From contig UQOG01000002.1 in NCBI GenBank assembly GCA_900542615.1, positions 11,718-75,717 of the forward strand: a stretch of 64,000 bases of DNA, written 5' to 3'. This DNA is from an uncultured Eubacteriales bacterium. GTDB lineage: Bacteria; Bacillota; Clostridia; Christensenellales; CAG-138. This document shows positions 53,592-55,889 of the stretch, in pieces (position 1 is the first letter of the stretch; each line of letters starts with the position of its first letter). A program made the translations under genes and the position numbers. The notes beneath the pieces were generated by a model. That model ran no database searches, was not told the origin of the DNA, and saw only the letters and a program-made list of their open reading frames with translations.

Positions 53592-55889
53592 ATGCAGACC
53601 GTCAGCGAGATCCGACACCATATCCATGCGGTGACCCAGACCCGTAAGATCACCAGCGCCATGGAGACGGTTTCTTCTGCTAGAATGAAGAAATTCGCGG
53701 TGCACATCCCCTACAATAATACCTATTACCAGCGGCTGCAATCCGTCATGAAGGATATCCTGGCCTCTTCCCAGGATGTGAATCATCCCTATTTGCTCCG
53801 GCATCGGGGCCACCGCCACACCTATATCGTTATCGCGGGGGATAAGGAAATGGCGGGCAGTTACAACGCCAATATCCTGCGGATGGCCTATGAGGAGATC
53901 CGCAAGGATCCGGATTGCAACGTGGTAACCGTGGGCATTATCGCCACCCGCTTTTTTCGCAAGCGGGGGATCGAGCCCATTTTCGACGTACAGGGCATTG
54001 CCCAGAACCCCACCCTATATAACGCTTCCCAGCTGGCGTTGCCGGTGATGGAGCTGTTTGATAAGGATAAGACCGACGAAATTTTCGTGTTCTACACCCT
54101 GTATGCCGGGCCGGACGGCAGGCCGGTGAACGCCCCCCATAAGGCGCGGCTTTTGCCCATACGGCTGCGGGATTATGAAAAGGTCCAGGCTACGGAGGAG
54201 CTGCGGGATGTGATCTATAATCCCTCCCCCCAGGAGGTGTTCGATCAGCTGGTGCCCCAGTTCATCATATCCCGGCTTTTTGATAACCTGGTGCAATCCT
54301 ATGCAGCGGAACATTATGCCCGTATGAACGCCATGCAGAGCGCCACCCGGAATGCGGATACGCTGCTTAAGCAATTGCAGCTGGACCTGAACATGGCCCG
54401 GCAGACCCAAATCACCAATGAGATCGCGGAAATCAGCAGCAGCAGCGTTGCCATCGAGGATGCACGATCCAAGAAAAAGGAGGAGCCACCTATGGAACAG
54501 GGGCTGGAAAAAGCCATTATTTCAAAGATCAGCGGGCCTGTGTTGACCGTACAGTATCCGCCCTCGGAAAGCTTTCGGCTCCATGACCTGTTGGTCACGG
54601 AAAATGAGGTGCATCTGGAGGTGGCCTCCCATACCTCCAACGGGGAATGCAAATGCATTGCCATGGAATCCACCTATGGCCTGCACTGCGGCATGGCGGT
54701 ATCCAATACCGGCGCCTGCATCCAGGTTCCCGTTGGGGAGCAAACCCTGGGGCGGGTGGTGGATGTGCTGGGGAATCCCCTGGATAAAGGCCCTGCCCTT
54801 ACCGGGGAACGCTGGGGCATCTACCGGGACGCGCCCGCCTTCCAAGACCTGAGCCCCAAGACCACCTTCTTCGAGACCGGCATCAAGGTGATCGATCTTT
54901 TGACCCCGTATGCAAAGGGCGGAAAGATCGGCCTATTCGGCGGGGCAGGGGTGGGCAAGACCGTGCTGATCCTGGAGCTCATCTACAACATCGCCAAGGA
55001 GCATGGAGGCTATTCCGTATTCACCGGGGTAGGGGAGCGAAGCCGGGAAGGCAACGACCTGATCCACGATATGCGCTCCTCCGGGGCCATCTCAAAGACC
55101 GCCATGGCCTTTGGCCAGATGAACGAACCTCCGGGATCCCGTATGCGGGTGGCCATGACCGGCCTTACCATGGCAGAGTATTTCCGGGATCGGATGAACC
55201 AGGATGTGCTCCTGTTCATCGATAATATCTTCCGCTATGTACAGGCTGGTAACGAGGTATCCGCCATGCTGGGGCGTATGCCCTCGGCGGTGGGCTATCA
55301 GCCTACCCTGGCGGAGGAATTGGGCGAGCTGGAGGAGCGCATCACTTCCACCAAAAACGGGTCCATTACCTCCGTGCAGGCCATCTATGTGCCGGCGGAC
55401 GACCTGACCGACCCTGCGCCAGCCACCATTTTCTCCCATTTGGACGCCACCACGGTGCTGTCCCGGCATATTGCAGAAATGGGCATCTATCCTGCGGTCA
55501 GCCCCTTGGAATCCTCCTCCCGTACGTTGGATCCCTCCATCGTGGGCCAGGAGCATTACGAGGTTGCCCGGCGGGTGCAGGCCTGCTTGCAGCGGTATAA
55601 TGAGCTGAAGGATATCATCGCCATCCTGGGTATGGACGAACTGAGCGAGGAGGATCAAAAGACCGTATACCGGGCCAGAAAGCTCCAGCAGTTTTTGTCC
55701 CAGCCCATGCATGTGGCGGAAGCCTTTACCGGCAAACCCGGCCGTTTCGTACCCCTGGCGGATACCATCCGCAGCTTCAAGGCCATCGTGGACGGCCAGG
55801 TGGATCACCTGCCGGAATCCGCCTTTACCATGGTAGGAGATATCGACGAGGCCATCGCCAAGGCGGAGGAGATGGAAAAGAATGGCTGA
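53592..55889 (+). CDS. atpG: continuous ORF encoding F1 gamma (codons 1-300) read through into F1 beta (codons 301-765)
   Basis: Gamma signatures [28 protein letters not shown] and [14 protein letters not shown] are followed in frame by a complete beta. No stop codon separates them in the sequence as given. Confidence 0.85.
54492..55889 (+). CDS. atpD: F-type ATP synthase F1 beta subunit (internal start within the gamma-beta ORF)
   Basis: ATG 54492 lies 8 nt after an AAGGAGG SD. 465 aa with P-loop [43 protein letters not shown] and GMDELSEED. Confidence 0.8.

Follow-up and report, generated by a model that had tools for sequence, protein, structure and literature searches.

The 64,000-nucleotide stretch of contig UQOG01000002.1 analyzed here (hereafter, the window), from an uncultured Eubacteriales bacterium, carries an F-type ATP synthase operon in which the gene for the rotor subunit gamma (atpG) continues without a stop codon into the gene for the stator subunit beta (atpD). 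The result is a single open reading frame (ORF) on the forward strand, 53592..55889, with 765 codons followed by TAA. We consider it nearly certain that this frame represents a real and conserved gamma-beta fusion. The explanation that best accounts for the observations, to which we assign a probability of about 0.6, is a fusion that is maintained by selection, would deliver two products from one frame, and would join gamma to beta through a swivelling tether. Textbook rotary catalysis treats rotor and stator as separate bodies, and we are aware of no earlier description of a natural motor in which the two would be covalently tethered. No published natural gamma-beta fusion was found in open-access papers and bioRxiv, and no chain covering both gamma and beta was found in the PDB.

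Both halves of the fused protein are ordinary F1 subunits, and the genes around them form an ordinary atp operon. The initial annotation of this locus, made from the letters and their translated ORFs, had described an uninterrupted frame holding a complete gamma and then a complete beta, a description that Pfam searches bore out. The gamma profile PF00231 matched residues 4-287 over profile positions 2-284 of 285 (E = 4.7e-69), and beta was covered by PF02874 (residues 310-374), PF00006 (430-643), and PF22919 (649-739), with both the P-loop GGAGVGKT and the DELSEED motif present. The best PDB match of the beta part was itself a beta chain (2qe7_D, E = 8e-193). Along the forward strand, the gamma core occupies codons 1-280 (53592..54431) and ends in the C-terminal helix with the conserved motif ITNEIAE; a variable pre-start linker follows in codons 281-300 (54432..54491), and the beta coding part runs from an internal ATG onward (54492..55889, 465 codons plus stop). 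One open frame stands where the canonical arrangement has separate gamma and beta genes, and what sets the window apart from every characterized F-ATP synthase is a peptide bond linking rotor to stator, together with a start for free beta nested inside the longer gene.

The possibility that the fusion is a sequencing, assembly, or consensus error, with a stop codon at the end of atpG in the true genome, had been raised in the initial annotation and was addressed by comparison with other assemblies and relatives. The exact 765-amino-acid protein was recovered from 15 independent contigs (NCBI, Logan, and ENA) and belongs to a 90%-identity cluster of 348 members, and four metagenome assemblies of independent origin (L089-L092) have junction DNA identical to that of the window. 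In a protein search, gamma-beta fusions of 750-830 amino acids at 47-98% identity made up more than 50 separate clusters (90% identity), and the same fused operon is present in the complete genome of an isolate, Chakrabartyella piscis (CP092441, locus L081). We also scanned metagenome contigs with a gamma-only query, ranking the loci by identity over the C-terminal half of gamma; because the query was gamma only, the resulting sample of loci is unbiased for fusion state. All 28 loci with at least 63% identity were fused, although one fused contig, at 1.2x coverage, carried a later stop inside beta. At 57% identity or less, a stop was found in every locus that could be parsed (49 of 49, from a total of 52), located 9-36 codons past the conserved ITxEIxE motif. 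Close relatives with a stop codon, which would have spoken for an error, were thus not what the scan returned: the fusion is common to all close relatives. Since the clade retains the fusion at 60-98% identity, a complete genome also has it, and no frame near the junction contains a stop, the probability of an error is, in our judgment, negligible. Two broader searches added little to this comparison. A contig scan with a broad gamma alignment (A1) yielded at least 80 loci, none of them fused and none above 49% identity; the close relatives were missed, and these loci serve as controls only. A search of 1.84 billion representatives with the full fusion was uninformative, with one incomplete fused representative (P0173) among the top 150; its long matches were beta subunits with unrelated N-terminal extensions, including the Mycoplasma G1-ATPase beta type (9io5).

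Relatives listed as beta-only proteins of 466 amino acids (88% identity) were considered as possible reversions and rejected as artefacts. One such entry (P0058) reflects an annotation choice, its locus L082 having one open frame of 767 codons (6098-8401), and the contigs behind another (P0057) begin 44 nucleotides 5' of the beta ATG, inside the open linker. Two independent P0057 contigs (L173 and L174) both start at this same point of the linker, which suggests a recurrent assembly break there.

In a neighbour-joining tree built from alpha plus beta, one fused group, clade A, was monophyletic and sister to unfused lineages. Further fused loci, designated clade B (L086, L087, L088, and, by architecture, L171 and L172), were interleaved with unfused lineages, and two fused singletons (L085 and L169) were placed among Lachnospiraceae-like operons. 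This scatter of fused lineages among unfused ones indicates that the fusion arose more than once or was reverted. The singletons L085 (7001-9277; protein P0064) and L169 (6001-8244; P0072) have very short gamma-beta junctions and a delta of full length. Only one contig supports each of them, with approximately 3x coverage for L085, and either an error or an additional independent fusion could account for them. The position of C. piscis is also peculiar, since NCBI classes this isolate as Lachnospiraceae, yet its operon is of the clade-A type otherwise seen in Oscillospiraceae-like metagenome-assembled genomes, reflecting either uncertain taxonomy or operon transfer.

The junction itself reads GCC ATC GAG GAT GCA CGA TCC AAG AAA AAG GAG GAG CCA CCT ATG. 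As the initial annotation had noted, it contains a Shine-Dalgarno (SD) sequence, AAGGAGG (54477..54483), placed 8 nucleotides 5' of the beta start at 54492 and read in frame as Lys-Glu-Glu, and it lies in a region free of stop codons: none occurs in any forward frame from 54422 to 54543, the nearest out-of-frame stops being at 54388 and 54419 upstream and at 54544 and 54584 downstream. By contrast, the earlier remark that the CGA codon (54465-54467) is one substitution away from TGA proved to be without significance, as this codon is not conserved and the stop of unfused relatives adjoins or overlaps the beta start. Recoding or frameshifting was rejected, there being no stop in any frame near the junction and a continuous frame in all relatives. 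The predicted mRNA fold around the junction was no more stable than shuffled sequence (z = 0.46) and left the SD unpaired, giving no evidence for a structural RNA switch.

The arrangement of unfused relatives suggests how such a junction may have formed. Among 44 unfused relatives, many already have the SD of beta within the last codons of gamma, and in such relatives the stop overlaps or abuts the beta start (e.g., ...AAAGGAGAAACT TAA TG ATG). From these features the fusion looks like the outcome of a stop loss, in which the former gamma tail and spacer became the linker and the SD and start of beta were retained. The pre-start linker of the fused genes is approximately 20 codons long, with many codons for Lys, Glu, and Gln and no conservation of its amino acid sequence. 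Its sole conserved feature is found at the nucleotide level: AGGAGG stands 6-9 nucleotides 5' of an in-frame ATG or GTG in all 19 distinct junction sequences of clade A, with varying neighbouring codons. A nested gene is characterized by a conserved SD and start codon that lie within a longer ORF, itself conserved, and the fused loci at greater distance (L086-L088) also have SD-like sites. Elsewhere in the ORF, AGGAGG recurs in motifs constrained by the protein, PSPQEVFDQ and DELSEED. Furthermore, the NCBI pipeline independently starts beta at the exactly homologous codon in two relatives (P0058 and P0061). We therefore regard internal initiation of a free beta as very probable. Nested in-frame genes with internal starts are exemplified by infB, clpB, and cheA of Escherichia coli, which likewise yield a long and a short product of one frame from a conserved internal SD and start. 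The products of those genes are isoforms of one protein, whereas in the window the short product would be a complete subunit needed in two extra copies, and the long product adds a different subunit.

The divergence between clade-A operons allowed selection on the open frame to be estimated. Amino acid identity ranged from 62 to 96%, in contrast to 18-64% identity at four-fold degenerate sites, which are saturated. The pre-start linker offers on average 6.4 single-nucleotide paths to a stop codon, and the tree length at four-fold sites is at least 6.3 substitutions per site. Under neutrality, approximately 13.5 nonsense substitutions would thus be expected in this segment by a rough count, and none was observed in 18 clade-A lineages (rough Poisson P of about 1e-6). 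The length of the pre-start linker varies between 17 and 23 codons, and the indels are always in frame. These comparisons support selective maintenance of the open frame and, together with the SD and start present at every clade-A junction, favor the stop-loss scenario of the initial annotation, in which both a gamma-beta chain and a free beta would be made.

The fusion also co-occurs with an N-terminally truncated delta in both well-supported fused groups, bearing out the initial suspicion that it was tied to the unusual b-delta gene nearby. In the window, a protein of 227 amino acids (51384..52067) joins b to the C-terminal half of delta, with PF00430 at residues 9-137 and a match to the OSCP profile at positions 96-172 only. 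The N-terminal domain that canonically caps the enzyme is absent from the operon, which contains no other delta-like ORF, and alpha (52077..53588, 503 amino acids, identified by Pfam) has no OSCP part. Fusion of b to the delta C-terminal domain was found in every clade-A operon examined (e.g., L081, 4795-5475, and L083, 4794-5480). In clade B, all five loci with upstream sequence encode an alpha of 583-601 amino acids, and in four of these the N terminus matched the C-terminal part of the OSCP profile only. Among the unfused relatives, the nearest ones are already without the delta N-terminal domain and have either a free mini-delta of 72-77 amino acids or a fusion of the delta C-terminal domain to alpha (deltaCTD-alpha), and more distant ones have a full-length delta.

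Natural and engineered enzymes with a similar loss have been described. In the deltaDeltaN-alpha enzymes (Bacillus PS3, PDB 9jc1; PMC12229609), delta likewise lacks its N-terminal domain and the remainder is fused to a neighbouring subunit; natural genes of this kind were noted in Acidaminococcus fermentans, and the paper does not mention a gamma-beta fusion. According to that work, the delta N-terminal domain fills the crown's central concavity on the three-fold axis, its deletion exposes the concavity, and the domain determines how many peripheral stalks there are as well as the H+/ATP ratio: the engineered deltaDeltaN-alpha PS3 enzyme bound up to three peripheral stalks and an H+/ATP ratio of 5.8 versus 3.0 (PMC12229609). 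The distant fused loci L086-L088, L171, and L172 share this deltaCTD-alpha architecture, unlike the window, where the delta C-terminal domain is carried by b and not by alpha. As there is only one b gene in the window, a b2 dimer would carry two delta C-terminal domains, which may bear on the stoichiometry and number of its stalks, for comparison with the engineered multi-stalk enzyme. The mycobacterial b-delta fusion (atpFH; PDB 7jg5 chain d, 445 amino acids) is likewise a natural fusion of adjacent atp genes, but it joins stator to stator, retains a full-length delta, and creates no rotor-stator link; the 227-amino-acid protein of the window matched only residues 362-440 of 7jg5_d, which correspond to its C-terminal delta part. 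We infer that loss of the cap opened a route for a chain running from the gamma tip to the beta N terminus.

F1 has the composition alpha3 beta3 gamma1, and gamma rotates relative to beta. Only one gamma fits into alpha3 beta3, so a cell making the fusion alone could not build the enzyme, and the internal start would supply the two other copies of beta. The scenario that we favor begins with loss of the gamma stop in a lineage whose last gamma codons already held the SD of a tightly coupled beta gene. Initiation at the gamma ATG, with reading through the former junction, would give one gamma-beta chain of 84 kDa, initiation at the internal SD and ATG (54477-54494) would give a free beta of 51 kDa, and one gamma-beta, two beta, and three alpha subunits would assemble into a normal alpha3 beta3 gamma1 head. 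The C-terminal tip of gamma would sit atop the crown on the rotation axis, and from there the disordered linker could leave through the central concavity toward one beta N terminus, an exit that we propose is free because delta has lost the domain that normally plugs it. Rotation would then continue by swivelling of the linker about its backbone bonds. An intact tether is physically plausible in this respect, since a single chain on the axis can relax its twist by bond rotation.

Structure prediction and published cross-linking both bear on this proposal. An AlphaFold2 (AF2) model of the fusion placed gamma helices at residues 4-36 and 213-292 and the beta barrel from residue 308, with predicted local distance difference test (pLDDT) values below 50 at residues 279-303. 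This prediction fits a flexible linker of about 20-28 residues, longer than the tether of approximately 15 residues initially suggested. The link starts beyond the complete gamma profile, at or past the single C-terminal helix (which ends at residue 292), and not in the coiled coil. In E. coli F1, a disulfide between gamma285 and alpha280 (gammaA285C/alphaP280C), formed with a yield of more than 98%, left 100% of the ATPase activity and rotation persisted; cross-links down to gamma276 kept partial activity and links in the coiled coil abolished it, which the authors interpreted as swivelling of the backbone within gamma's single C-terminal helix (Hilbers, Junge & Sielaff 2013, PMC3536650). Those constructs and their neighbours likewise link the gamma tip covalently to the crown, but they are artificial disulfides to alpha made directly on the helix, whereas the window encodes a natural peptide bond with a linker of approximately 20-28 residues to the beta N terminus, under selection and accompanied by an internal beta start.

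The harmless cross-links at the gamma tip also lend some weight to a neutral origin, in which the stop was lost, the tether was tolerated, and the fusion persisted by chance or entrenchment without a benefit of its own. Fused lineages scattered among unfused ones are what would be expected if the event is easy. Nevertheless, a tolerated tether should have accumulated the expected nonsense substitutions and out-of-frame indels, neither of which is seen, and no reversion was found among the 28 close loci, making neutrality improbable. A different doubt arises from the clustering of oddities in this operon, namely, the lost delta N-terminal domain, the fusion of b to the delta C-terminal domain, and an N-terminal extension of subunit a, which could point to an ATP synthase that is decaying or has been repurposed and no longer rotates, the fusion then being irrelevant to rotation. 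We consider this very improbable, as each of the eight subunit types is intact and, except for delta, matched by Pfam over its full length, the P-loop and DELSEED motifs are invariant across 51 fused homologs, and the high amino acid identity despite saturated silent sites attests to strong purifying selection on the operon.

Cleavage is a more serious competitor, although still rather unlikely. Here, one chain would be made and its exposed, Lys- and Glu-rich linker then cut by cellular proteases during or after assembly, so that mature gamma and beta are separate and the role of the fused frame lies in coupling the two during translation or assembly, or in the stoichiometry of expression. The predicted disorder and composition of the linker suit such a fate, and selection for an open frame fits a transient fusion equally well. 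On the other hand, the linker shows no conserved cleavage motif, its only conserved feature being the nucleotide-level SD, and the cross-linking experiments show that rotation needs no cleavage. Several further points weigh against a selected, swivelling tether. The linker of the predicted chain could be cut after translation. The nonsense expectation is rough, relying on a Jukes-Cantor correction capped at saturation, the length of a neighbour-joining tree, and mutation rates taken as equal. The AF2 model (overall pLDDT 71.7, predicted template modeling score 0.41) makes the disorder of the linker visible and gives no reliable gamma-to-beta geometry, and the distance that the linker must span is that of F1 structures in general. 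Finally, the fused singletons L085 and L169 keep a full-length delta, which, if these single-contig loci are real, means that delta truncation is not strictly required. Balancing these arguments, we infer two products, a tether that stays intact in the assembled enzyme, a swivel, and a steric role for the delta truncation. An intact tether in the working enzyme has a slightly better than even chance in our estimation, and we would give about even odds to the fuller statement that the intact chain operates in a working motor with its rotor permanently peptide-bonded to its stator, swivels at a disordered linker that passes through the central concavity, became feasible only after loss of the delta cap, and is kept by selection. 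The selected benefit could lie, for example, in assembly, gamma retention, or stoichiometry, or in a remodelled, possibly multi-stalk enzyme.

The remaining genes of the operon complete a bacterial F-type set on one strand, in the order a-c-b/delta-alpha-gamma/beta-epsilon (50220-56301, forward strand), and relatives have the same order. Subunits a (50220..51101) and c (51129..51371) of Fo were identified by Pfam, and epsilon (55882..56301, 139 amino acids) overlaps the end of beta with its start. Subunit a has 293 amino acids, of which only residues 93-288 were matched by Pfam, leaving an N-terminal extension of approximately 90 residues. Directly 5' of it (region 49909-51101) lies an ORF of 104 amino acids without a Pfam match that may be atpI/atpZ-like. 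One member in the cluster of the b-delta protein next to the fusion bears the name Candidatus Pelethousia gallinarum at NCBI.

Variation in other subunits was also noted among the relatives. Mini-delta genes of 72-77 amino acids occur in L126 (3800-4018), L131 (3790-4020), L001 (5268-5486), and L002 (5274-5507), and deltaCTD-alpha fusions of 580-592 amino acids in the unfused loci L124, L128, L135, L152, L155, L157, and L159; together, they suggest that an N-terminally truncated delta is widespread in gut and termite Clostridia. Long alpha ORFs, recognized by length alone, were seen in Subdoligranulum, Ruminococcus flavefaciens, Gemmiger, and Lawsonibacter loci (L005, L014, L037, and L049). 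The epsilon subunit of L083 (9279-9554) has 91 amino acids and consists of the beta-sandwich domain only, without the C-terminal helical domain. In distant fused lineages, c subunits or ORFs at the c position reach 117-154 amino acids (L086, 4216-4599; L087, 4188-4541; L088, 4398-4754; L172, 2432-2896), and in L086 the Pfam c-subunit match covers residues 60-123 only, with an N-terminal extension of approximately 55 amino acids. In L155 (11-1871 and 6390-9706), approximately 3.3 kb separate gamma from beta, and a second beta-epsilon pair is located 5' of the operon.

Databases name the fused proteins automatically as 'subunit beta' or 'Multifunctional fusion protein', and gene calls give either a 765-amino-acid 'beta' or the internal beta only, with gamma uncalled. 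NCBI calls only the internal beta (466 or 458 amino acids) in L082 (6098-8401) and L081 (7001-9298), and in L082 approximately 900 bases 5' of the annotated beta are without a gene, so that atpG appears to be missing. With gamma left unannotated in this way, pathway reconstructions will wrongly report atpG as missing.

The claim is open to direct test, as the cultured C. piscis (CP092441) carries the same operon. If true, a selected gamma-beta bond would mean that evolution uses the backbone swivel so far known only from engineered cross-links, and these enzymes would offer a natural system for its study. Since the fusion is tied to loss of the delta N-terminal domain, abundant gut Clostridia may carry substantially remodelled ATP synthases.

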